DNA of 64,000 nt from Chloroflexota bacterium (GTDB lineage Bacteria; Chloroflexota; Anaerolineae; JACRMK01), in the NCBI GenBank assembly GCA_016235055.1, contig JACRMK010000046.1, forward strand, positions 34,958 through 98,957, written 5' to 3'. Positions 19,574 to 64,000 of this stretch are shown in pieces. The translations under genes and the position numbers were made by a program. The first letter of the stretch is position 1, and each line of letters starts with the position of its first letter. The notes beneath the pieces are model-generated. The model worked only from the letters and a program-made list of their open reading frames with translations. It made no database searches and had not been told where the DNA came from.

Positions 19574-19909
19574 CTACCAGATCCAGCGCTTCGGGCTGTA
19601 GCCGAAGACGAGCACGCCGCAGGCCGCGGCGGCCGAGACGACCGCCATGGCGATGACATCTTCGACGGGCGTCACGCCGAACAACCAGATGCCAAGCACC
19701 TGCTGCGGGTCGAAGTACCACGCGCCCCACTGCCCGCCGAGCGGGTCGGTGACGAGCATCCACAGTTCGGCGATCAGCACGACCGTGATGATTATGCGGC
19801 GGCGGCTCCAGAGAAAGCGCGCGTTGCGCGCCCACAGGATCGCCATGAACAGCGCGCCCATCGCCCCCGTCATCACGAGATAGGTGGCGCGCGGGGGAAT
19901 CAGATCCAT
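19574..19909 (-). CDS. Lycopene cyclase domain protein (heterodimeric CrtYc/CrtYd type), subunit 2
   Basis: 111-aa membrane protein with PVED (PxE[ED]) motif; ATGA overlap with upstream subunit. Confidence 0.75.
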   Translation of the reverse strand: MDLIPPRATYLVMTGAMGALFMAILWARNARFLWSRRRIIITVVLIAELWMLVTDPLGGQWGAWYFDPQQVLGIWLFGVTPVEDVIAMAVVSAAAACGVLVFGYSPKRWIW

Positions 19910-20223
19910 CAGACGCGGCCCTCCGCTTCGGCCAGGACGATCGTCAGTGCGCCGAACAACACGGTGATGGCGGCGATCCAGATCCACTCTTCAATCGGCA
20001 GGCCGAGCAGCCAGATATTGGCGATGTGCTCCGGCGCGTAGAACCAGACGCCGCGCCGCACGGCCAACGCGTCCCACAGCCAGCCGCCGGCCAGCGAGCC
20101 GAGCGTGACCCACGTCAGCGCGCGCCGCTGCTTCCAGAAGACCTGTCGCCAGCGCAGCAGCGCCAGCAGCGGCACGCCCATGCAGAGCGCCAGCCAGATC
20201 AGGTATGTGTAGTGACCGAACAT
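19909..20223 (-). CDS. Lycopene cyclase domain protein (heterodimeric CrtYc/CrtYd type), subunit 1
   Basis: 104-aa membrane protein with PIEE (PxEE) motif. Confidence 0.75.
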   Translation of the reverse strand: MFGHYTYLIWLALCMGVPLLALLRWRQVFWKQRRALTWVTLGSLAGGWLWDALAVRRGVWFYAPEHIANIWLLGLPIEEWIWIAAITVLFGALTIVLAEAEGRV

Positions 20224-27787: not shown

Positions 27788-28120
27788 ATGAGCACCCCCG
27801 TAATCGCCGAGCCGCCGTGCTTGGCTGAAGCGATTGAGCGCATCGTGCAGCAGTTTCACCCGCTGCGCATCATCCTGTTCGGCTCCTGGGCGCGCGGGGA
27901 CGCCCGCCCGGACAGCGACCTTGATTTGCTGGTGGTGATGCCGGAGGCGCAGAACAAGCGCGCTATGACAGTTCGCATAGGCAATTCGTTGAGTGATCTG
28001 CCGATCAGCAAAGATGTCGTGGTAACGACGCCAGCGGAGATCGTGGAGCACGGGCAGACTATCGGGCGGGTGCTCCAGCCGGCGCTGGCCGAAGGCAAAG
28101 TCGTCTATGAGCGCCGATGA
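27788..28120 (+). CDS. Nucleotidyltransferase (MNT/MntA-like antitoxin component)
   Basis: GSWARGD...DSDLDLLVV matches the GSx9-13Dx[DE] minimal nucleotidyltransferase motif; GGAGGAG upstream. Confidence 0.8.
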   Translation: MSTPVIAEPPCLAEAIERIVQQFHPLRIILFGSWARGDARPDSDLDLLVVMPEAQNKRAMTVRIGNSLSDLPISKDVVVTTPAEIVEHGQTIGRVLQPALAEGKVVYERR

Positions 28121-28508
28121 TGTAGGCACTTGGCTGGCGTATGCGCATTCCGACTTGGGGGCGGGTCGGTCACTCTTGCTCGGGCCTGAGCCTTTTTCAC
28201 GCCAGTCGTGTTTTTATGCACAACCGGCTGCGGAAAAGGCGCTAAAAGCTGTGCTGGTAGCGCATGGCATCAAAGTTCCGCACACGCATGACCTTGATCA
28301 TTTGCGTGAGATCATCCCGGGCGGGGCTTCGGTGAAAGTCGAATTCCCGCACCTCTATGCATTGTCGATCTGGGCCGTCGAGGCGCGCTATCCCGGCGAT
28401 CCGCAAGAGGTCACGGCCGATGAGGCACGCGCGGCGCTCGATCTGGCGGAACGAGTGCTGCGGGCGGTGGAGCGCGACTTGCGCGCCGGCGGCGCAGAGG
28501 CGTCGTAG
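28107..28508 (+). CDS. HEPN domain protein (toxin component), overlaps MNT gene by 14 nt
   Basis: 133 aa with HEPN-like helices (QQA/QPAAEKALKAVL); gene order MNT-HEPN with overlapping ends is the canonical arrangement. Confidence 0.75.
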   Translation: MSADDVGTWLAYAHSDLGAGRSLLLGPEPFSRQSCFYAQPAAEKALKAVLVAHGIKVPHTHDLDHLREIIPGGASVKVEFPHLYALSIWAVEARYPGDPQEVTADEARAALDLAERVLRAVERDLRAGGAEAS

Positions 28509-46259: not shown

Positions 46260-47024
46260 ATGCGCAAAGAGATAGCAACCGTCGTGTTGGGATTAACAAT
46301 GATACTCGCGGCTTGCGGGCCGACCCCCACACCCGCCGCCATGATGCAAGCCGCGATGCCAACGCCTGACGCAATGATGGCCAAGCCGACGCCCGATGCG
46401 ATGATGGCCAAGCCGACGCCCGATGCCATGATGGCCAAGCCGACGCCCGACGCCATGATGGCGCGCCCAACACCCGACGCGATGATGGCGCACCCAACAC
46501 CCGACGCCATGATGGCGCACCCAACACCCGACGCGATGATGGCGCATTCGACCCCGGATGCCATGATGCAAGCCCCGGCCTGGTTTGGCGCATCGCTGAC
46601 CGATGTGCGCACCGGTCAGACGTTCTCGCTCAACGGCTTCAAAGGCAAGGTGGTGCTGGTCGAAACGATGGCGCAATGGTGTCCGAGTTGCCGCACGCAG
46701 CAGACGCAGGTGAAAGACCTGCGCGCGATGTTTGCCGGGCGCGATGATCTGGTGACGATCGCGCTCGACGTGGATCCGAATGAGCAGGCCGCCGACCTGA
46801 AGAAATACGTGCAGGCCAACGGCTTCGAAGGGTTCTACGGCATCGCGCCCGCCGCCGTGGCGCGCGAGATCGGCAATCTTTATGGCGCGCAATTCCTGAA
46901 TCCGCCGTCCACGCCGATCCTGATTGTGGACCGCCACGGCCTGGCGCATCCCCTGCCGTTCGGCATCAAGAGCGCACGCGATCTGGCGAGCGCCATCGAG
47001 CCGTACCTCAAGGACGCCATGTAA
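46260..47024 (+). CDS. TlpA/ResA-like thioredoxin-fold lipoprotein with tandem nonapeptide linker
   Basis: Lipobox ILAAC; seven to eight repeats of A[KRH]PTPDAMM; redox motif WCPSC; AAGGAG upstream. Confidence 0.85.
   Translation: MRKEIATVVLGLTMILAACGPTPTPAAMMQAAMPTPDAMMAKPTPDAMMAKPTPDAMMAKPTPDAMMARPTPDAMMAHPTPDAMMAHPTPDAMMAHSTPDAMMQAPAWFGASLTDVRTGQTFSLNGFKGKVVLVETMAQWCPSCRTQQTQVKDLRAMFAGRDDLVTIALDVDPNEQAADLKKYVQANGFEGFYGIAPAAVAREIGNLYGAQFLNPPSTPILIVDRHGLAHPLPFGIKSARDLASAIEPYLKDAM
46341..46560 (+). repeat. 27-bp tandem repeat array inside the tlpA-like gene (coding, in frame)
   Basis: GCCAAGCCGACGCCCGATGCGATGATG-type unit repeated about 8 times with third-position and K/R/H variation. Confidence 0.8.
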
Positions 47025-48174: not shown

Positions 48175-48338
48175 ATTTTTCCCTCCCCTGGATATACGCG
48201 CAGGCCGCCCTGGTCCATTGCCTCCGGCTGTGGCAGCGTGCTGTTCATCTTACCGCCCTTGCCCGAATTGCGTGAACGGCCGCCGGCAACAAAAAGCCCC
48301 GCGTAAGCGCGGGGCGTGTCTGGCTGACCCGCTGCGGG

Positions 48339-49283
48339 CTACCCGCCCGCGCAGATGCTCATGTTCGGATAGAACTGCTTGCAGATGCGCGGCACCGACG
48401 GGCCGAGGATCACCAGGCCCAGCGCCGGCAGCAGCATCAGCACCAGCACCACGCTCATCTTGACCGGCGCGCGCTGCGCCTCTTCCTCGGCGCGCTGGCG
48501 CCGCTGAATGCGCATCATGTCGGACTGCACGCGCAGCACCTTGGCGATATTCACACCCAATTGCTCGGCCTGCAGGATGGCCGCCACAAAGCTGGACAAC
48601 TCCGGCAGGCCGGCGCGCGCCGCCATATCGCGCATCGCTTCGGAGCGCGTCTTGCCGATCTGCACCTCCACCAGCATCTGCGCCAGCCCGCGCGCCATCT
48701 CGTCGTCCCGCTCGCGCGCGACGCGCGCCATGGCCGCCTCCAGGCCAAGTCCGGCTTCCACGCTGACCGTGATCAGGTCAATCGCATCCGGCAGCGCGCG
48801 GCGAATCAAATGCTGGCGGGCGCGAATGCGGCTGTTCAGCCAGAGCACCGGCGCATAGAATCCCAGGCCAACCACCGCCAGGAAAACCAGGATCTGGTTG
48901 GCCAGCGGCAAATTGAGCACCCCGAAAAGCAGTAAGCCGAAGCCGCCGAATAGCGCCGCCAACACGACCCGCATCCCCAGGAAATCGGCCGGCGCCCAGC
49001 GAAACGGGTTGCCCGCCATATCGAGCTTGAGCCGGATCGCATCCAGGTTGACCTGCGGCATCAGGCGCAGCAGCAGTCGCGCCAGGTTGCGCAGTCCGGG
49101 CCGGATCACACGCTCATACAGCGGCTGGTCCAGATCCACCTCGTCCAGCGAGCGGACGCGGCGCCCGTAGTTTTCGAGGCGCGCCTGCACGCGATCGCGG
49201 CGCGTAGTTACCGCCAGGCCCGCGAAGACCAGAAAGATGCCGTAGGCCAGCGACAGCGCGATAATGACAATCTCGGTGGGCAT
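48339..49283 (-). CDS. tadC: Tad pilus inner-membrane platform protein TadC (T2SS F-family)
   Basis: 314 aa, N-terminal TM, cytoplasmic GspF-like domain, two C-terminal TM helices. Confidence 0.85.
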   Translation of the reverse strand: MPTEIVIIALSLAYGIFLVFAGLAVTTRRDRVQARLENYGRRVRSLDEVDLDQPLYERVIRPGLRNLARLLLRLMPQVNLDAIRLKLDMAGNPFRWAPADFLGMRVVLAALFGGFGLLLFGVLNLPLANQILVFLAVVGLGFYAPVLWLNSRIRARQHLIRRALPDAIDLITVSVEAGLGLEAAMARVARERDDEMARGLAQMLVEVQIGKTRSEAMRDMAARAGLPELSSFVAAILQAEQLGVNIAKVLRVQSDMMRIQRRQRAEEEAQRAPVKMSVVLVLMLLPALGLVILGPSVPRICKQFYPNMSICAGG

Positions 49284-49292
49284 GGGGTTGCG

Positions 49293-50267
49293 TCAAACCT
49301 CGATACTGATAATCCGGCGGATGACCAGCATGGCCGAGCCGACCAGCACCAGCACTGTGAAGAAGATCAGTTGCCCGCACAGCGAGTTGAAGAACTGTCC
49401 CATGTACGCGGGGCTGATGACAAAGAGCAGCACGGTCAGCAGGAACGGCATGGCGCCGACAAAATAGCCGGATGCCTGCTGCTGCGTGGTCAGGATGCGC
49501 ACCTCACCCTTGATGCGGATGCGCTCGCGGATCGTGTGGTTGATCGTGTCGAGAATGAGCGAGAGGTTGCCGCCGACCTCGTGCTGGATCAGCAGCGCGG
49601 TGACCAGCAGGTCGAGGTCTTCATTGCGGATGCGATTGCGCATGTTTGAGATCGCCTGATCGAACGCCACGCCAAGGCCGATCTCGCGCACCACCCGGCC
49701 GAACTCCTCCGAGATCGGCGGCTGCAGTTCCCGCGACAACAACTCCATGGACTGCAAGAGGCTGTAGCCGGACCGCAGCGAGGTGGACATCAGGCTGATC
49801 GCGTCGGGCAGTTGCCCGCTGAAGGCGCTGCGCCGCTGGTACTGGCGGAACACCAGGTACCAGCGCGGGCCCAGGTAGCCCAGGATGGCGCACGGCAGCG
49901 CCACATACCACTGCTTGAAGATGAGGAGTCCCAGCGCAAACGCGAGCAGCACGCCGGTGACCATCACGACGATGAACTCGCCGGGCGTCAGCTTCAGGTC
50001 GGCCTGCGCCAGCTCCAGCTCCAGCGTGTGGCCGCGACCGCGGCGCGTCAACTGGCGGTCGATGTCGCGCGTCAGGCGCCCGCGCGCGCGCGCGCCGCCC
50101 GTCACGTGCCCGCCGACGACGCTGGCGCGCATCGCATAGTGTTCCATGCGGTCGTCCACGTCGTACGGGTTGCGCGATAGCGCGCGCGCCAGCCCGGCAA
50201 AGAACAGGACGATCCCCAGCATGGCGAGGCCGCCGACGACCAGCGCCGCAACGGGTAGCCCGCCCAT
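49293..50267 (-). CDS. tadB: Tad pilus inner-membrane platform protein TadB (T2SS F-family)
   Basis: 324 aa with the same topology; start codon directly abuts cpaE-like stop. Confidence 0.85.
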   Translation of the reverse strand: MGGLPVAALVVGGLAMLGIVLFFAGLARALSRNPYDVDDRMEHYAMRASVVGGHVTGGARARGRLTRDIDRQLTRRGRGHTLELELAQADLKLTPGEFIVVMVTGVLLAFALGLLIFKQWYVALPCAILGYLGPRWYLVFRQYQRRSAFSGQLPDAISLMSTSLRSGYSLLQSMELLSRELQPPISEEFGRVVREIGLGVAFDQAISNMRNRIRNEDLDLLVTALLIQHEVGGNLSLILDTINHTIRERIRIKGEVRILTTQQQASGYFVGAMPFLLTVLLFVISPAYMGQFFNSLCGQLIFFTVLVLVGSAMLVIRRIISIEV

Positions 50268-51536
50268 CTAGCGTGCTCCGAACAGCCCGTGCTTCGGCCG
50301 GGAACCGGCCGCGCGCAACTCGGGCGCCATGTGCTGCGCCAGGTGTAACACCACCTGGCTGATCGGCGTTTTGGGACTGCTGATGACGAACGGCAGGCCG
50401 GACTGCACCGCCTCGACCGCCGTCTTGTCGTCGCGCTCGATCACGGCGACGATCGGCTGGCCGATGGCAGATTCGATCTCCTTGGGCGACACGCGTCCTT
50501 TGGGGTTATGCCGGTTCAGCACCAGCATCATCTTATTCGCCGGGTATTTGAGCAGTTCCGCAACCTCCAGGAACAGCCGCATGTTCTTGACGACATGCAC
50601 CTCGCTGGTGGCGACCAGCACGATCCGGTCGGCATGGTCGAGGATCGTCAGCATCGTCTCGTCGAGCGCGCTGAATGTGTCCACGATCACATAGTCGAAC
50701 TGGTCGCGCAGCGCGTTCAACACCTGGTCAACGGCATGCGGCGTCAGCGTGTCGGCAAGCTCCGGCGACGCCGGCGCCAGCAGGACCTTAACGCCGCTGT
50801 GGTGCGCGGCCAGCACGTCGGGCAACGCCGCCAGGTCCACCTTGCCGTTGGACGAGCAAATATCGGTGATCGTGCGCTGGGAGCGCAGGTTCATGTACAC
50901 GCCCACGTCGCCGTAGCGCAGGCTGGCATCCATCAGCGCGACCCGTTCGATCCCGCCGGTTTGCAGCGCAATGGCCAGGTTAACCGCCAGCGTGGTGCGC
51001 CCGATGCCGCCGTTGGCGCTGTACACGGCAATGATTCGACCGTGCCGCGACGGCGGTGGCGGTGGCGGCGGAGCGATCGCGGCCAGGCGCGGCGCCGAGC
51101 CGGGTATCACGCTGCCGGGCGACAGCGGCATAGGGCCAGCCGACGGCGCAGCGTACGCGGTGCGCCGGATCCCTTCCAGCAGTTCTGCCGACTCAAACGG
51201 CCGGATGATAAACTCGCGCGCGCCAGCCAGCAGTACGCGCTGCAGATATTCCGCGCTCGCCAGCGACTTGGGAATCACCATCAAGATGCGCGTGGCGGGC
51301 AAGCGCTCGGCAATCGCCTGGCTAATCTGCAGACCATCGGCGCCCTGGCCGCCCACCACCGCCACCAGCACGACGTCGGGCATCTTCTGCTCGGCCGCAA
51401 ACAACGCGTCGTGCAGCGAGGTCGCCGTACCCACAATCTGGATGGTAGACTCAAGGGACAGCAACTGCTCAAGCGCAGACAGCGTGTCCCGCTCGGCGTC
51501 GACTAACAGGAGTCGGATCGGTTGCGTTGAGTTCAT
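50268..51536 (-). CDS. cpaE: CpaE/TadZ-like pilus-assembly ATPase (ParA/MinD fold) with N-terminal receiver-like domain
   Basis: Deviant Walker A VYSANGGIGRTT; N-terminal about 120-aa REC-like domain (IRLLLVDAE...); Pro-rich linker. Confidence 0.85.
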   Translation of the reverse strand: MNSTQPIRLLLVDAERDTLSALEQLLSLESTIQIVGTATSLHDALFAAEQKMPDVVLVAVVGGQGADGLQISQAIAERLPATRILMVIPKSLASAEYLQRVLLAGAREFIIRPFESAELLEGIRRTAYAAPSAGPMPLSPGSVIPGSAPRLAAIAPPPPPPPSRHGRIIAVYSANGGIGRTTLAVNLAIALQTGGIERVALMDASLRYGDVGVYMNLRSQRTITDICSSNGKVDLAALPDVLAAHHSGVKVLLAPASPELADTLTPHAVDQVLNALRDQFDYVIVDTFSALDETMLTILDHADRIVLVATSEVHVVKNMRLFLEVAELLKYPANKMMLVLNRHNPKGRVSPKEIESAIGQPIVAVIERDDKTAVEAVQSGLPFVISSPKTPISQVVLHLAQHMAPELRAAGSRPKHGLFGAR

Positions 51537-51560: not shown

Positions 51561-51953
51561 CTAGCGCGGCTTGCCCAATTGCGCCGCCACAAAACGGACA
51601 ATGCTCAGCGCGTATTGATAATATTCCCCGGATTGCTCGATCGTCGGCGCCGCTTCAATATCAGCCGGGTAGACCGATTGCGTCGTAAACGGCACGAGCG
51701 CCGCCACCGGCCGCTCAAACTGGCGGAACGCCGCATCGACCGAGACACACAGCCCCAGCAGGTAGGTCAGGTTCTGGCGCAGCAAAAAGTGCTTGGCGCT
51801 CGCCACCAGATATGCCTTCAGGCTCTTTTCGATCGCCTGCTGGCAATGAAAGGCGTGGATCGCCGTCGGGAAGTCGTCGACGTGCTGCAGAATCTCCGCG
51901 GTTCTAAGGTCGGACTGCGCATAGCGCAGCCAGTCTTGAGCATTTTCAGCCAC
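51561..51953 (-). CDS. HEPN domain protein, orphan (no adjacent nucleotidyltransferase gene)
   Basis: 130 aa, GTG start; helix pattern HCQQAIEKSLKAYL similar to the HEPN at 28107; sits between cpaB and cpaE-like genes. Confidence 0.7.
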   Translation of the reverse strand: MAENAQDWLRYAQSDLRTAEILQHVDDFPTAIHAFHCQQAIEKSLKAYLVASAKHFLLRQNLTYLLGLCVSVDAAFRQFERPVAALVPFTTQSVYPADIEAAPTIEQSGEYYQYALSIVRFVAAQLGKPR

Positions 51954-52004
51954 GGGTGCGTCTATCCTTTGTGTAGTGTGATGCAGAGCGTCCGTCGCGG
52001 CCGC

Positions 52005-52778
52005 TCACTTGACGAGCATGCCGTTGAAGCCGAAGCGAATATCCACGTATTCCACGACGATCGGCTGGGTCCGGAAGCGCTGGTGGTCGCCCGCCGCGCG
52101 CAGGACGAGATGCAGCCCCGATGACGTCTCGCGCAGGAACTTGAGCGTCAGCGCGTCCTGCGGCGTCAGCAGGAAGGTCACGTACGACTGCGCGCCCGCC
52201 TCAGCGCTCGCCGACCAGAGGCCGACCTTGAGCACCTCGACGTCCTGCAGCGCGATCTGGGTGATCTGCCGCCGGGTGACGCCGGTCGTGATGTTGCCGG
52301 TCGAGGCGACATCGTAGGACGCCAGCACGTCCACGTGGTCGCCTTCGCGCAGCGCCGATGCTACGCCGCTGACGGCGTCGATCGCGTATGCCATCGCCAC
52401 CAGGCCGTTCGGGACAATGTATGAGGCCTGGCTGCCGGCGCCGCGGCGCGTCTCCTCGATCTCTTTGTCGATCAGCATGCCGGGCAGGATGACCTGCCCC
52501 TCGGCGATCTGCGTCGCCGCCAGCCGGTTGTACGCGTCGACCGGATCGGTCAGCGCGCCGCGCGGCACGGAGGCGGTTGGCCAGTCGGCCAGCCCGATCG
52601 TATCGGTTGTCACCGTCGCGCGCGGCGCAATCGCCCGGCGCGCCACGACGACTTTGGTCGTCTGCACTTCCACCTGCGCCCGATTGCGATCGGGGTTGAG
52701 AAAGACAAATGACGCGATGAGTGCGAGGCCGCCGAGCAGAATGCCCAGCAGGATCAGAACGCGCCCGCTTCGTTGCAT
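52005..52778 (-). CDS. cpaB: Flp pilus assembly protein CpaB (RcpC-like)
   Basis: N-terminal TM anchor, SAF-like and beta-rich periplasmic domains typical of CpaB. Confidence 0.85.
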   Translation of the reverse strand: MQRSGRVLILLGILLGGLALIASFVFLNPDRNRAQVEVQTTKVVVARRAIAPRATVTTDTIGLADWPTASVPRGALTDPVDAYNRLAATQIAEGQVILPGMLIDKEIEETRRGAGSQASYIVPNGLVAMAYAIDAVSGVASALREGDHVDVLASYDVASTGNITTGVTRRQITQIALQDVEVLKVGLWSASAEAGAQSYVTFLLTPQDALTLKFLRETSSGLHLVLRAAGDHQRFRTQPIVVEYVDIRFGFNGMLVK

Positions 52779-52838: not shown

Positions 52839-53855
52839 CTAGTTGGTCAGATTGACGCTCTTAACGCCCGACACACCACCACAGTTGGTTATACAGATCT
52901 CGCCCGGCATGATGTAATGCTGGAAATAGCCCATTACCGTCTTCGGATTGCCGGTCATGTTTACCACGCTTACCACGAGGCGCGCGAAGCCCACGACGTG
53001 GTACATCTTATGGCCCTGCTCCGAATTCGCTGTGTCGTAGAATAATACCGTCACCGACATCCCCTGATGCGCTACGATGGCGTCGCGAATGTTCTGCGTA
53101 TTGCCCAGGCCGGTGTCGCCGTCCAGGCAATCGCCGATGGACAGCATCGTCTTCGATGTCGCCTGATTCTGATCGCACTCGCCGCCTGAATACAGATAGG
53201 TCATGTACGGGCTGGCGGACTGACCGTTCAGCCAATTCAGCGTGTCGGTCGAATTGTTGTTGCCGCCATTAAAGTCGACCCACCCGAACGTGCCCGGCTG
53301 GTAGTTGGTGCCGTTGTCGTTGAACAGCGTATACACCTGACCATAGGACAATGGCGAGGTGATCGACGGCGTGTGCACAACCATCGGCCACAGCGGCGCA
53401 TTGGTCATTCCGATCGGCCCGGCGCACGCCGTGGCTTGCGCGGACGTGTTCATCGCGTTGAATCCGACGATGCCCATGAAGTAGGTGCCAAAGGTCACGT
53501 AGGTTGTGACCCGCACGCAGTTGTCGCTGGCCGACGGGTTGGTCGTTTTGACATCGTTGTTGCTGGGCAGGAAGACACCTTCCCAGTTGTCGGCGCGATT
53601 GCCGAAACCGCCGCCGCCCACCGTGTACGACTGAACCTGTCCTTCGATAATCGAGCGCGCCATCGCGTTACCCAGTGCATACGCGCCTGCCATGGAACCC
53701 GAATCGGCGGCGTTCTGCATCATGCGCCGCCGCTCGAAAACCTGCGCACCATCCAGCGCCAGACCCACGAACGCGACCAGCGCAACCGCCATCAGCGCCA
53801 CCAGCACAACGGCTTGCCCGCGCCGGCGACGGTCCTTCAAATGTAGGCCGTTCAT
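52839..53855 (-). CDS. TadG-like pilus-assembly protein (Tad N-terminal domain plus large extracellular domain)
   Basis: N-terminus RRGQAVVLVALMAVALVAFVGLALDGAQV matches the Tad/TadG motif; Gly/Asn/Thr-rich remainder. Confidence 0.7.
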   Translation of the reverse strand: MNGLHLKDRRRRGQAVVLVALMAVALVAFVGLALDGAQVFERRRMMQNAADSGSMAGAYALGNAMARSIIEGQVQSYTVGGGGFGNRADNWEGVFLPSNNDVKTTNPSASDNCVRVTTYVTFGTYFMGIVGFNAMNTSAQATACAGPIGMTNAPLWPMVVHTPSITSPLSYGQVYTLFNDNGTNYQPGTFGWVDFNGGNNNSTDTLNWLNGQSASPYMTYLYSGGECDQNQATSKTMLSIGDCLDGDTGLGNTQNIRDAIVAHQGMSVTVLFYDTANSEQGHKMYHVVGFARLVVSVVNMTGNPKTVMGYFQHYIMPGEICITNCGGVSGVKSVNLTN

Positions 53856-53927: not shown

Positions 53928-54359
53928 TTAATTGCACGTGCTATTATTGTTCGTACGGCCAATCCGCATGGTCGCCGTCGCCGCCAGCGGCAAACTCGGA
54001 ATAAACGACACGATCGGCGAGAACGTGTAACTGGTGCCCACCTGGATCCGATTGCCAAACGAGCAGTAGCTGCTGCCGGTGGCGCCGGCATCGTTCAAGC
54101 AGGTGACCGTAACGTCGCTGGATGTCATACCCACCGCGACGACGCGCTGCAAAGCGACCTGCGTGACGCATGCCGTATTCTGGTTAACTATCCCGTAGCG
54201 CGCGCCTTCTTCCGCCGCGCTCAGGACGGTGTTGTAATAGAAATAGGCGCGCGAGAACTCCAGAATGCCGAACACGATCAGAAACAGCAGGGAAGCGATC
54301 GCTGCAAACTCAACCAGCGATTGCCCGGCCTGCCGCATGCGCGCGACAATGCTCATCAC
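53928..54359 (-). CDS. TadE/TadF-like pseudopilin
   Basis: N-terminal GQSLVEFAAIASLLFLIVFGILEF (TadE motif); 143 aa. Confidence 0.75.
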   Translation of the reverse strand: MMSIVARMRQAGQSLVEFAAIASLLFLIVFGILEFSRAYFYYNTVLSAAEEGARYGIVNQNTACVTQVALQRVVAVGMTSSDVTVTCLNDAGATGSSYCSFGNRIQVGTSYTFSPIVSFIPSLPLAATATMRIGRTNNNSTCN

Positions 54360-54821
54360 CTAATTCCCGGTCGTCAAAACCATCATGTCAGCCTGCCCCA
54401 TCAGCGGAATCGTCGAGAAGCCGATGATGCCGGCGAAATACGGGGTCAGACTGTAGGCGACCGCGACGCGCACCGGGCAACCTGCGGCGGCAGAGCCGCC
54501 GGCGCACGTGATTGTTCCGCTGAGCGCTGGATAGCTGACCGTCACATCGCCGCACGCCACCGTCAGTGTGCCGGACAGCGATTCCTGCACACGCGAGCAG
54601 ACCGTCGCCGACGTTCCATCCGGCAGCGCAGCATAATATGCGCCCTCGCGCGCCGCGTTGGTCAGCGCGATGTAGATACGAAACGCGTTGGCGAAGTCAA
54701 CCACGCCGGCCAGCAGGAGGATGAGGAACGGCAACACGAGCGCGAACTCGATCACGCTCTGCGCCCGGCTGTTTTTGCGGTGCAATACTCCGACCATATC
54801 ACCCCATACTCCCTTAACCAT
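54360..54821 (-). CDS. TadE/TadF-like pseudopilin
   Basis: N-terminal AQSVIEFALVLPFLILLLAGVVDF (TadE motif); 153 aa; start may be the internal ATG 24 nt downstream. Confidence 0.75.
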   Translation of the reverse strand: MVKGVWGDMVGVLHRKNSRAQSVIEFALVLPFLILLLAGVVDFANAFRIYIALTNAAREGAYYAALPDGTSATVCSRVQESLSGTLTVACGDVTVSYPALSGTITCAGGSAAAGCPVRVAVAYSLTPYFAGIIGFSTIPLMGQADMMVLTTGN

Positions 54822-55220: not shown

Positions 55221-55316
55221 TGTGGAGGGCTGACTGGTTATGCGCCGAATCTCGCCCCTAATCTGAAATACACCCGATAAGAACATTTGTTTCATTGGTG
55301 GTTCATCCTGTGGTAT

Positions 55317-55322
55317 TATAAT
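55317..55322 (+). promoter_or_regulatory. -10 hexamer TATAAT 6 nt upstream of ATG (leaderless-type)
   Basis: GGTATTATAATGATGCCATG. Confidence 0.45.
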
Positions 55323-55328
55323 GATGCC

Positions 55329-56690
55329 ATGCCCCAGCCGATCCATTTTGAGAAAGGCGCGACGCAGACCGTCGCCTTTGTGCCCGGCGCCGACGCGACC
55401 GCCATCGCCGAGACGATGGTCGCCTTCGCCAATGCCGAGGGCGGCAGCCTGTTCATCGGCATGAGCGCCGACGGCCGCATCCACGACCTGTCCGGCGAGG
55501 ATGTCGACGCCTCCGTCACGCGCGCGCAGTCGCTCTGCCGCCCGCCGGTGCGCTCCGAGTGGCAGCGCGTCGAGACGCCGGCCGGCTTCGCCATCGGCAT
55601 CACCATCGCGCGCAGCCCCGAATTGCACTCGCTGGCCGACGGCCGCGTGCTGATCCGCGCCGGCGCGGAGAACCGGCCGCTGGCCGGCTCCGAGATCCGC
55701 CAACTGGCGGCGACCAAGGGCAGCGGCGATTTCGAAGCGGAACTGGTGCCTGCCGCGCGCCGCGCCGATCTCAGCGACGCCCTCATCAAGGAGTACATCG
55801 CCAAGCGCGAGGAGAAGCAGCGCCGTCGCTTTGCCCAGCCCGCCGACGAGATCCTGCGCGACGCCGCGTTCACCGACGAGCACGGCAACCCGACCGTGGC
55901 CGGATTGCTGCTGCTCGGGCACAACCCGCAAGCGCTCCTGCCGCAGAGCGGGCTCGTCTTCGTGCGCTTCCCCGGCACCCAGCCGACCTCCGGCGAGAAA
56001 GCCGGTTACGGCCGCCGCGAGGAGATCGGCGGCCCCCTGCCGCGCCTGACCGAAGAGGCGTGGGACTTGATTCACCAGGAGATGCGCGTCGGCGCCGTCG
56101 TCACCGGCCTGCGCCGGCAGGAGACGACCGAGTACCCGCCGTTCGCCGTGCGCGAGGCGCTGATCAACGCCGTGGCGCACCGCGACTACCGGCTGGGCGG
56201 TCGGCGCATCGAGGTGCGCATGTTCGACGACCGGCTGGAGATCATCAGCCCCGGCGGGCTGGCCGGCTACATCACCGTGGACAACATTGTCGAGGAGCAC
56301 TTCTCGCGCAACCCGCGCATCGTGCACGGCCTGTTCCAGTGGGGCTACATCGAGGAGCTCGGGCTCGGCGTGGACAAGATGATCGACGACATGCTGGCCG
56401 CCGGGCACCCGCCGCCCAAGTTCAAGCCCGCGCCGTACTCGTTCACCGTGATCCTGTCGAACCAGAAACAGCGCGCGCCGATGCCGACCTGGCAGAAGAA
56501 CATCAGCGAGCGCCAGAAGCGCGCCGTGCAGTACGTGCAGGAGAACGGGCGCATCACCAATCGCGAGTACCAGCAACTGTGCCCCGACGTCAGCGCCGAG
56601 ACGCTGCGCATCGATCTGGCCGACCTGGTCGACAAGGGCCTGCTGATCCGCATCGGCGACAAGAAGGGCACCTATTACATGCTGAAATGA
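55329..56690 (+). CDS. Schlafen/AlbA_2-type ATP-binding protein with HATPase_c_4 and C-terminal HTH (RecG-C-terminal-like putative regulator)
   Basis: N-terminal AFANAEGGSLFIGMSADGRI (AlbA_2 pattern); middle REALINAVAHRDY; C-terminal winged-helix-like segment. Confidence 0.75.
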   Translation: MPQPIHFEKGATQTVAFVPGADATAIAETMVAFANAEGGSLFIGMSADGRIHDLSGEDVDASVTRAQSLCRPPVRSEWQRVETPAGFAIGITIARSPELHSLADGRVLIRAGAENRPLAGSEIRQLAATKGSGDFEAELVPAARRADLSDALIKEYIAKREEKQRRRFAQPADEILRDAAFTDEHGNPTVAGLLLLGHNPQALLPQSGLVFVRFPGTQPTSGEKAGYGRREEIGGPLPRLTEEAWDLIHQEMRVGAVVTGLRRQETTEYPPFAVREALINAVAHRDYRLGGRRIEVRMFDDRLEIISPGGLAGYITVDNIVEEHFSRNPRIVHGLFQWGYIEELGLGVDKMIDDMLAAGHPPPKFKPAPYSFTVILSNQKQRAPMPTWQKNISERQKRAVQYVQENGRITNREYQQLCPDVSAETLRIDLADLVDKGLLIRIGDKKGTYYMLK

Positions 56691-58347: not shown

Positions 58348-58686
58348 ATGAACATAACGGCGCAAGGAAGCCGCACGGCGTCAACACGTGGACGGTCCGA
58401 TCTGAACCGATTCAGACGAATCCTGAAGCGGCACATGCCTGATTTGGAGAACCGCTACAACGTCCGGTCGCTAGGCATCTTCGGATCGTATGTTAGGGGC
58501 GAACAGCGGAAGCGTAGTGATCTGGACGTGCTGGTCGAATTCGCCAAATCGCCCGACCTGTTCGAGTTCACGGCATTGGCCGACGACCTCGAGCACCTGT
58601 TGGGCGTTAAGGTGGATTTGGTCAGCCGGAACGGCCTGCAAGGCCGCTTGGCAGAGCGCATCTTAAGCGAGGTTGTGCCGGTATGA
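58348..58686 (+). CDS. Nucleotidyltransferase MntA-like antitoxin
   Basis: LGIFGSYVRGE...SDLDVLV motif; AAGGAG upstream. Confidence 0.8.
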   Translation: MNITAQGSRTASTRGRSDLNRFRRILKRHMPDLENRYNVRSLGIFGSYVRGEQRKRSDLDVLVEFAKSPDLFEFTALADDLEHLLGVKVDLVSRNGLQGRLAERILSEVVPV

Positions 58687-59069
58687 GTGCCGCGCGCCGC
58701 CATCTCGACTACCTGCGGGACATCGCCGACATGATGGGCACCGTTGTCGAGTTGACCGATGCGATGACGTTTGAGCAGTTTGCGACTGACAAACGCACGG
58801 CTTTGGCCGTCAGAAAGGCAATCGAGATCATCGGCGAAGCCGCCAAGCATCTGCCACCGTCCTTCCGCGATCGGCACGATGCAATCCCCTGGAAACAAAT
58901 GGCTGGCATGCGCGATCGGTTAATCCACGCTTACTGGGGCATCAACATTGACATTTTGTGGGCAACGGCAACCGAAGTGATTCCCAGCCTGCGCCCGCGC
59001 ATCGCACTAGTCCTGGAACAGGAGCTGGCACGCGAACAGCGCGCGCGGCCGGCGCCAGATGATACGTGA
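58683..59069 (+). CDS. HepT-like (DUF86) HEPN toxin
   Basis: R-x4-H-x-Y HEPN motif (RDRLIHAY); ATGA overlap with mntA-like gene. Confidence 0.8.
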   Translation: MSAARRHLDYLRDIADMMGTVVELTDAMTFEQFATDKRTALAVRKAIEIIGEAAKHLPPSFRDRHDAIPWKQMAGMRDRLIHAYWGINIDILWATATEVIPSLRPRIALVLEQELAREQRARPAPDDT

Positions 59070-62733: not shown

Positions 62734-64000
62734 TTACGCCGGTCGCCAGCAGAGGTCCGGCTTGCGCGCTGCCGTCGCCTCGTCCAGCCGCGAGACCGGC
62801 GTGGTGTGCGGCGCAGAGCGCACGAGCTCGGGGTTCTCCTCGGCCTCGCGCGCGATCTGCAGCATCACCTCGCAGAAGCGGTCGATCGTCTCCTTGCTCT
62901 CCGTCTCGGTCGGCTCGACCATCAGCGCTTCCTCGACGACCAGCGGGAAGTAGACCGTCGGCGGGTGAATGCCGAAGTCGATCAGCCGCTTGGCGATGTC
63001 GAGCGTGCGCACGTTGTTCTTCGCCTGGCGCTTGCCGGAAAAGACGACCTCGTGGTAGCAGGTGCGGTCGAACGGCAGGTCGTACGCGCCCTTGAGGCGC
63101 TCCTTGATGTAGTTCGCGTTCAGCACGGCGATCTGGCTCACCTCGCGCAGGCCGTCCTCGCCGTGTGAGCGGATGTACGCGTAGCCGCGCACCAGGTTGG
63201 CGAAGTTGCCGTGGAACGCGCGCACCCGGCCGATCGACAGCGGCCGGTCGTTGTCGAGCGTGTAGCGGCCATCCTTGAATGCGACGACCGGCGCCGGCAG
63301 GAACGGCGCCAGCGCCTTGGAAACGCTTGTGCCGCACGCGCCCGGCCCGCCGCCGCCGTGCGGCACGCCGAACGTCTTGTGCAGGTTGTAGTGCAGGATG
63401 TCGAAGCCGACCTCGCCCGGCTTGCAGATGCCGAGCAGGGCGTTCATGTTCGCGCCGTCGCCGTACACCAGGCCGCCCGCCGCGTGCACCAGTCGATTGA
63501 TCTGCTCGATGTGCTGGTCGAAAAGGCCAACCGTCGACGGATTGGTGATCATCATGCCCGCGACCGTGTCGTCGAGCAGCGCCTTCAGCGCGTCCACGTC
63601 CACGTTGCCGTGGGCGTCCGCCTTGACGGTGACGACGCTGTAGCCGACCATCGCGGCGGTCGCCGGGTTGGTGCCGTGCGAGCTATCCGGCACGATAATT
63701 TTGGTGCGCTTCGTGTCGCCGCGCGACTTGTGATAGCCGTGGATCATCAGCACGCCGGTCAGTTCGCCGTGCGCGCCTGCCGCCGGCTGCAGCGTCGCGC
63801 CCGCGTGCCCTGCGATCTCGGCGAGCTGCTCCTGCAGTTCGTACATCATGCGCAGCGCGCCCTGCACGGTGCTCTCAGCCTGGTACGGGTGAATGCGCGC
63901 AAAGCCCGCCTGCCCGGCGATGACGTCGTTGATCTTCGGGTTGTACTTCATCGTGCACGAGCCGAGCGGATAGAACACGGTATCCACGCTGAAGTTCTTG
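62734..64000 (-). CDS. gcvPB: Glycine dehydrogenase (decarboxylating) subunit 2, GcvPB; 5' end lies beyond window
   Basis: PLP-enzyme motifs incl. [13 protein letters not shown] and LHKTF (Lys for PLP); reading frame stays open to the window edge. Confidence 0.9.

Follow-up and report, generated by a model that had tools for sequence, protein, structure and literature searches.

A HEPN-domain protein without its predicted catalytic residues is conserved under purifying selection in a derived Tad-like gene cluster of Chloroflexota

The closest described relatives of the gene considered here belong to MNT-HEPN modules of the PF05168 or ‘HEPN-T’ type, exemplified by TT1696, ST0689, AF0298 and TM0613, and by a gene pair at 27788-28508 of the window (by which we mean the whole 64,000-nucleotide stretch of Chloroflexota DNA that was analysed). 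The HEPN gene at 51561..51953 has in common with them the family, the fold, the helix-2 core ‘FHxQQAxEKxLK’ and the ‘YP’ loop. Unlike them, it is accompanied by neither an MNT gene nor the remnant of one, His60 and Arg94 are both replaced in its product, and its setting is a pilus operon rather than a two-gene module; it is not part of an MNT-HEPN module. In the HEPN-T subfamily the His of the Rx4-6H motif is usually replaced by Asp and the Arg is kept, and an alternative active site is probably completed by a second strongly conserved His, contributed by the insert that separates core helices 2 and 3 (PMC3710099).

As well as acting within toxin–antitoxin (TA) modules, HEPN proteins have been put to other uses, and ‘domestication of former TA systems’ has been described for them (PMC3710099). 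In exapted HEPN domains, including the C-terminal domain of kanamycin nucleotidyltransferase and GlnE-type proteins, MtlR and human sacsin, the scaffold is kept, the RNase residues are lost and the domain is reused for binding or regulation, as we propose here. Those domains are, however, of other families and occur in fusion or partnership with nucleotidyltransferases, chaperone modules or sugar operons, whereas the protein described here stands alone in a Tad-like cluster. HEPN-T domains such as that of sacsin are reported to bind nucleotides. A further point of comparison is provided by the gene dyads of a MAE_18760-family HEPN and a ParA/Soj-like ATPase, which have been predicted to be TA systems (Anantharaman et al. 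2013, PMC3710099). The likeness lies in a small HEPN gene that directly adjoins the gene of a ParA/MinD-family ATPase. The present gene appears to differ in family (it matches PF05168 and is nested among MNT-linked genes), lies upstream rather than downstream of the ATPase gene and encodes a protein predicted to be inactive, and the dyad ATPase is a stand-alone Soj, whereas the neighbour here is a pilus organiser of the CpaE/TadZ type that carries a receiver domain. Searches of full-text papers turned up no description of a HEPN protein as part of a Tad or type IV pilus cluster, or together with CpaE.

The sequence-only reading of the window had placed a HEPN gene alone between cpaB and a cpaE-like gene, on the same strand and with gaps of about 25 and 50 bp. 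This arrangement was confirmed, the spacers being 24 bp and 51 bp. The Tad/Flp gene set clustered in the window encodes CpaB/RcpC, CpaE/TadZ, TadB, TadC and TadE/G-type pseudopilins, and is laid out as follows.

53928..54359 and 54360..54821, minus strand: two tadE-like pseudopilin genes, the first of the cluster (PF07811 both).
52839..53855, minus strand: gene for a TadG-like pseudopilin/anchor protein (PF13400, PF09977).
52005..52778, minus strand: cpaB/rcpC, 257 aa (TIGR03177 4.9e-33, PF16976), immediately upstream of the HEPN gene across the 51-bp spacer.
51965..51969, minus strand: AAGGA, an RBS-like motif 11 nt 5′ of the GTG start, read from the sequence.
51561..51953, minus strand: HEPN-domain gene of the PF05168 / HEPN-T type, 130 aa, GTG start (protein MBI5878168.1).
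50268..51536, minus strand: CpaE/TadZ-like gene, 422 aa, encoding a degenerate (pseudo-)receiver and a ParA/MinD-like ATPase (PF00072 + PF13614/PF10609), 24 bp after the HEPN gene.
49293..50267, minus strand: tadB (T2SSF; PF00482, tblastn map), abutting the CpaE-like gene with no cpaF between.
48339..49283, minus strand: tadC (T2SSF; PF00482).
48296..48315, minus strand: intrinsic-terminator-like hairpin (8 G-C pairs and a T run), just 3′ of tadC.

The hairpin after tadC is the probable end of the operon. It was the only strong terminator found, and there was no convincing one next to the HEPN gene. The HEPN gene and the CpaE-like (REC-ParA) gene lie in the same frame and are separated by two stop codons.

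Sequence and structure together show that the gene encodes a HEPN-T protein. The ORF matched the Pfam family PF05168 over residues 5-122 with an E-value of 2.5e-14 and a score of 53.9 bits, against a cutoff of 22 bits. In the alignment its N-terminus, MAENAQDW, is that of homologues that start with ATG, and both the start position and the RBS are conserved. An AF2 model built on nine sequences (pLDDT 89, pTM 0.86, with residues 93-97 as the sole low-confidence stretch) forms an all-alpha, up-down helical bundle that can be superimposed on the solved HEPN-T structures. The best Foldseek matches of the model in the PDB were ST0689, TT1696, AF0298, the sacsin HEPN domain and TM0613 (1wol, 1ufb, 2hsb, 3o10 and 1o3u, respectively), with TM-scores of 0.72-0.80 for the first four, including 0.76 for sacsin, and of 0.58/0.63 for TM0613. 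PADLOC, which has no model for the HEPN protein, returned zero matches to it.

The cluster itself is unusual in what it contains. Neither a T2SSE match nor a tblastn match to CpaF was found in the whole 64-kb window, or in the related loci L005 and L006, so that no CpaF/TadA gene was detected in any of them. In the HEPN-bearing clade tadB comes directly after the REC-ParA gene, except in L006, where the gap of 183 bp is too short for cpaF. No Flp-like small ORF was found upstream of tadE, and tblastn with the Flp proteins of two canonical loci (L097 and L099) found nothing in the 64-kb window, with the proviso that short pilins are hard to detect and a divergent Flp in the window is still possible. 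No prepilin peptidase gene was found either, inside the cluster or in any other part of the 64-kb window. We found no conserved RNA structure in or near the cluster, and a regulatory RNA within it was rejected as a candidate feature, as Rfam at gathering thresholds gave only a tRNA at 136-208.

Several other features of the window may be recorded here. Divergent from the tad cluster, at 55287-56690 on the plus strand, is a gene for a protein with Schlafen AlbA_2, HATPase_c_4 and HTH domains, which gave PADLOC matches to pAgo and Argonaute-associated models (E 1e-21 to 4e-10) and may be a defence-related or regulatory gene. On the other side, at 46260-47024 on the plus strand, is the gene of a thioredoxin/redoxin-like lipoprotein with about eight tandem ‘PTPDAMMA’ peptide repeats between its signal peptide and its catalytic domain, followed by a DsbD-like membrane protein. 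At 19574-20223 on the minus strand, two short overlapping ORFs of 137 and 104 aa both match the lycopene cyclase domain PF18916 and adjoin a histone-deacetylase-family gene; they fit a heterodimeric (split) lycopene cyclase. Lastly, ARAGORN called a tRNA-Ala (GGC) at 63283-63374 on the minus strand, inside the ORF of the glycine-cleavage P-protein (62734..63987), which is probably a false positive because Rfam did not support it at the gathering threshold.

The position of the HEPN gene is not peculiar to the window. The order cpaB, HEPN, REC-ParA was found in all five lineages for which the context is known, whose HEPN proteins are 54-100% identical: the window with four identical Logan contigs (L001-4), L005 (72%), L012 (73%), L096 (61%) and L006 (55%). 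In L006 the HEPN stop codon overlaps the start of the REC-ParA gene by 4 bp; three of the other four lineages have a gap of 24-28 bp between the two genes, and L096 has one of 88 bp. P0010, the representative HEPN protein of the clade, and P0163, a REC-ParA protein 63% identical to that of the window, both come from Logan contigs of at most 2826 bp, and are probably encoded on one contig, which would make up a sixth lineage with this arrangement. The tad clade, as we call this group, is defined by six sequences, all of them metagenomic. It is also rare, amounting to one 50%-identity cluster at E <=1e-30 among 1.84 billion representative proteins, compared with 4909 family matches at E <=1e-3, and a scan of metagenomes with a profile of the clade found no new tad-clade locus and returned only the MNT-paired gene L093.

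Beyond this clade, Tad loci lack the gene. A search with the REC-ParA protein recovered a group at 63-100% identity that coincides with the HEPN clade, then one protein at 53% and many at 35-43%. In the nearest outsiders that were read (L097, L098 and L099), cpaB is followed directly by cpaE, with gaps of 15-50 bp and no HEPN gene between. L097 and L099 have the order response regulator, histidine kinase, flp, tadE, tadE, (a large adhesin-like gene), cpaB, cpaE, cpaF (T2SSE), tadB and tadC; L098 is cut off within tadE at one end and, at the other, before the gene that follows cpaE can be identified. A REC-ParA scan of GTDB genomes gave 80 further tad loci, none of which encodes a relative of the HEPN protein, and most of the twenty closest of these 80, when mapped, leave a cpaF-sized space between cpaE and tadB. 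The full-text searches did not show HEPN to be a recognised Tad component, and none of these 80 + 3 other tad loci has one. In comparison with the canonical Chloroflexota Tad/Flp loci L097 and L099, the cluster in the window has CpaB, CpaE, TadB and TadC in the same order and 46-54% identical, but differs in having an additional HEPN gene, no cpaF, no flp, no adjacent two-component pair and a degenerate CpaE receiver.

The last of these differences concerns the direct neighbour of the HEPN gene, a CpaE/TadZ protein in which an atypical, N-terminal receiver-like domain without phospho-acceptor residues is fused to a ParA/MinD-like domain. Its REC motifs read DAE, LVA and RPF, compared with DD, LMD and KPF in canonical relatives. 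The canonical motifs were found in 36/36 outsiders, and degeneration occurred only in the HEPN clade. In the clade proteins P0160-P0163, D-D has become D-A-E, the acceptor Asp has become Ala and the Lys has become Arg. Over the clade the phospho-acceptor Asp is gone in four of the five lineages and the change from Lys to Arg is found in all five. L006 keeps the receiver Asp, though not the other REC motifs, so the correlation between the presence of HEPN and loss of the phosphorylation site is imperfect. The Walker A motif of the CpaE-like protein reads ANGGIGRT, both of the usual lysines being replaced, by Asn and Arg. This feature is not specific to the HEPN clade, because the nearest canonical clade also has ANGGxGR[ST]T.

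The predicted active site of the HEPN protein has been altered just as consistently. Residues were mapped after Anantharaman et al. 2013 (PMC3710099), taking the Arg to be that of ‘RYP’ and the alternative His to be that of ‘xHDL’. Among 159 relatives collected by a word-index search and a profile search of 1.84 billion representative proteins, the His is present in 146 and the Arg in 145 (each ~92%). TT1696 and ST0689 carry both residues, and TM0613 and sacsin carry the Arg, which the protein encoded at 51561..51953 is without. The two codons concerned are the following.

51774..51776, minus strand: codon CAG, Gln60, at the position of the ‘xHDL’ His; Gln in 6/6 tad-clade members.
51672..51674, minus strand: codon GTC, Val94, at the position of the ‘RYP’ Arg (the R of the Rx4-6H-equivalent motif); Val, Ile or Asn in 6/6 tad-clade members.

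An alignment check of the catalytic motif had been proposed for this gene, and it found both predicted residues gone in every one of the six clade members; the five closest relatives (P0002-P0005 and P0010, 52-73% identity) all have Gln together with Val, Ile or Asn. Judged from its predicted catalytic residues, the HEPN protein is probably enzymatically inactive. We know of no HEPN-T RNase activity that has been measured to date. The clade also keeps the polar residues H33, H36, R59 and D98, which could in principle form a different active site.

The rest of the protein has not been eroded. The family core is retained, with W8, D15, H36, the QQxxEKxxK motif on helix 2 and Y95-P96, and 50 positions are invariant in the clade, several of them specific to it. 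The clade-specific invariants Q23, F28, H33, R59, Q60 and T90 cluster in loops round the former active-site cleft. Retention of the core and the appearance of new invariant residues round the cleft suggest a surface that has been repurposed rather than one that is decaying. Elsewhere in the family, loss of the two residues has occurred independently in three further PF05168 relatives (P0014, P0053 and P0076), and P0076, a protein of 182 aa, also has Gln and Ile at these positions, so there may be other HEPN-T domestications besides the tad clade.

A repurposed cleft need not bind a protein. In the main rival to the reading that we prefer, the HEPN protein would be a non-catalytic, RNA-binding, post-transcriptional regulator of the tad-like operon, similar to MtlR, that binds the operon mRNA or some other RNA and not the CpaE-like protein. 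RNA binding has been proposed for HEPN domains without the motif, for example MtlR, which is encoded in the operon that it represses (PMC3710099), and both the location of the HEPN gene in mid-operon and the conservation of cleft loops in a protein whose catalytic residues are gone are consistent with such a role. However, the cluster and its surroundings yielded no conserved RNA structure or Rfam match to serve as a target, loss of the Arg removes a residue likely to contact phosphate, and regulation through RNA would leave the co-occurring pseudo-receiver and loss of cpaF unexplained. We consider RNA binding improbable as the main function, while ranking it ahead of the other alternatives.

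No antitoxin gene was found beside the HEPN gene. The spacers that flank the HEPN gene are only 51 and 24 bp long and therefore leave no room for an MNT gene. A tblastn search with five MNT proteins (the two encoded in the window, plus the three MNT partners of the nearest MNT-paired relatives) gave only noise in the tad region of the window and in L005, L006 and L012 (best E ~0.09), and the same queries found the window's own MNT at E 1e-14 as a positive control. A hidden or decayed MNT gene beside HEPN is thus rejected for these four tad-clade loci, and no small overlooked MNT ORF was found next to the HEPN gene. In L005 the spacer between cpaB and HEPN (267-640) is 375 bp long and is made up of a GC-rich repeat of about 125 bp, present twice and containing a palindrome; the repeat is REP/MITE-like, and the spacer contains no gene.

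MNT genes do occur elsewhere in the window, where the sequence-only reading had noted two MNT-HEPN pairs. Both are present.

27788..28120 and 28107..28508: MNT-HEPN pair 1, an MNT gene and a PF05168 HEPN gene.
58348..58686 and 58683..59069: MNT-HEPN pair 2, an MNT gene and a HepT/PF01934 gene.

These pairs give some substance to a second alternative, that the gene at 51561..51953 encodes an active orphan toxin or RNase which uses alternative residues and is held in check in trans by an MNT protein encoded elsewhere, such as that at 27788-28120 or 58348-58686. Two MNT genes lie in the same window, alternative active-site residues are known in HEPN families (PMC3710099), and H33, H36, R59 and D98 are kept by the clade. 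Against this, none of the six members has either of the residues predicted for the subfamily, both local MNTs are already paired with overlapping partners of their own, and the gene has stayed at precisely the same place in a pilus operon while its sequence diverged by about 46%, which is not expected of an orphan toxin. Nor is the gene a recent paralogue of the window's MNT-linked HEPN gene (28107..28508), which retains both the His and the Arg and to whose product it has 29% identity. The suggestion that its antitoxin is encoded elsewhere accordingly found no support in the replaced residues or in this low identity; with both predicted catalytic residues replaced, no antitoxin would be needed. 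We regard an active orphan toxin as very unlikely.

The origin of the gene in a TA module is nevertheless clear, as comparison with the wider family shows its descent from MNT-linked genes. An overlapping upstream MNT gene accompanies every one of the five His/Arg-intact relatives whose context could be read (P0006, P0007, P0008, P0009 and L093). In the contexts that were read, genomic setting splits perfectly with predicted chemistry: proteins without the His and Arg are encoded between cpaB and REC-ParA, and proteins with both residues intact are MNT-paired. The closest MNT-paired gene with both residues intact is L093, at 44% identity, whose product already has the ‘FDEFPTAI’ motif in common with the tad clade. 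In a neighbour-joining analysis of 54 family members the tad clade was monophyletic in 483 of 500 bootstraps (97%), and its sister group, in 427 of 500 (85%), consisted of the MNT-paired L093 and P0012. Most simply, an MNT-HEPN module was captured once, and its MNT gene and catalytic residues were lost afterwards.

Descent from a TA module could have left no more than debris, and selection on the gene bears directly on this point. Within the clade the HEPN gene has a dN/dS of 0.12-0.37 at a dS of 0.6-2.7, and for the same genome pairs cpaB, REC-ParA, tadB and tadC have a dN/dS of 0.15-0.41. As the two ranges are the same, the HEPN gene is maintained just as the genes round it are, and it is no pseudogene. 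Its ORF is neither broken nor truncated in five or six lineages, with identities as low as 54%, over which synonymous change is saturated or nearly so. A functionless remnant of a TA insertion, decaying neutrally and hitch-hiking in the operon, would account for the absence of HEPN from the nearest canonical tad loci and 80 more distant ones, for the loss of both MNT and catalytic residues, and for a GC3 (0.75) somewhat below that of cpaB and cpaE (0.85-0.88), but is the least likely explanation of all in view of the intact ORF, the dN/dS shared with neighbouring tad genes, the 50 invariant positions and the conserved start and RBS. The sequence-only reading had taken absence from otherwise syntenic loci, combined with inactive residues, as the mark of a simple insertion; HEPN is indeed missing from more distant canonical loci, but its conservation within the clade rules out an insertion that is simple and functionless.

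Our data are most consistent with a model in which a HEPN protein, now catalytically dead, came from an MNT-HEPN module and was exapted by a derived Tad-like cluster, where it is probably a binding or regulatory partner of the pseudo-receiver ATPase, and we give this reading as a whole a probability of roughly 0.6. That purifying selection has kept the gene at a single position in a derived Tad-like cluster is a direct result of the comparison. That the protein is a domesticated, inactive and selected member of the operon is, in our judgement, highly likely. Two suggestions made from the sequence alone are each borne out in part. The gene does originate from what was called a degraded TA module, as its nearest relatives are MNT-paired and its catalytic residues are gone, but an intact gene under selection is not one in decay. 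Recruitment into pilus regulation is favoured as far as the recruitment goes, by the position held in five lineages, purifying selection equal to that on the neighbours and clade-specific invariant residues; the regulatory role is only putative.

In the exaptation model, one Chloroflexota lineage acquired an ancestral MNT-HEPN module of the PF05168 / HEPN-T type, a single time, at the point between cpaB and the cpaE-like gene. The module lost its MNT antitoxin gene, and both predicted RNase active-site residues were replaced, the His by Gln60 and the Arg by Val, Ile or Asn at position 94. Purifying selection fixed the rest of the four-helix HEPN scaffold, along with the loops at the former cleft, as a probably co-transcribed member of the cluster. 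The comparisons either display these steps or lead straight to them. Most likely, we infer, the protein acts non-catalytically, as a small binding or regulatory subunit.

The best candidate for a partner would be the adjacent CpaE/TadZ-like protein, on the grounds of tight linkage, the coincident loss of the phospho-acceptor and the precedent of HEPN genes associated with P-loop ATPases. That this pseudo-receiver protein is the specific partner is a possibility that we put forward tentatively. Gain of HEPN coincides with degeneration of the CpaE receiver, with the lack of cpaF in the locus and with the lack of a detected flp in the window, so that HEPN may replace phosphorylation as the input that controls or positions the ParA-like organiser. 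The apparatus may be a secondary Tad-like one, with motor and pilin supplied from elsewhere in the genome. In its fullest form this proposal makes HEPN a hitherto unrecognised subunit, structural or regulatory, of a secondary Tad-like apparatus that has neither motor nor pilin, an RNase toxin exapted to bind the CpaE/TadZ pseudo-receiver in place of a phosphorylation input; we regard it as doubtful, a little more so than the choice of partner itself. If true, it would be the first case in which a TA toxin has become part of a type IV filament machine.

Overall, the locus represents a well-documented case of a TA toxin that was disarmed and then retained by selection as a fixed gene of a cellular machine with which it had no connection, within the limited scope set by a tiny clade seen only in metagenomes. 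The steps are visible in extant sequences, from the MNT-paired sister with an intact active site, through loss of the MNT gene and replacement of the His and the Arg, to new clade-specific conservation. HEPN also marks a derived class of Tad-like clusters with no cpaF in the locus, no flp found and a pseudo-receiver CpaE. The proposed interaction between HEPN and the pseudo-receiver would offer a testable handle on how organisers of the CpaE/TadZ type are controlled.
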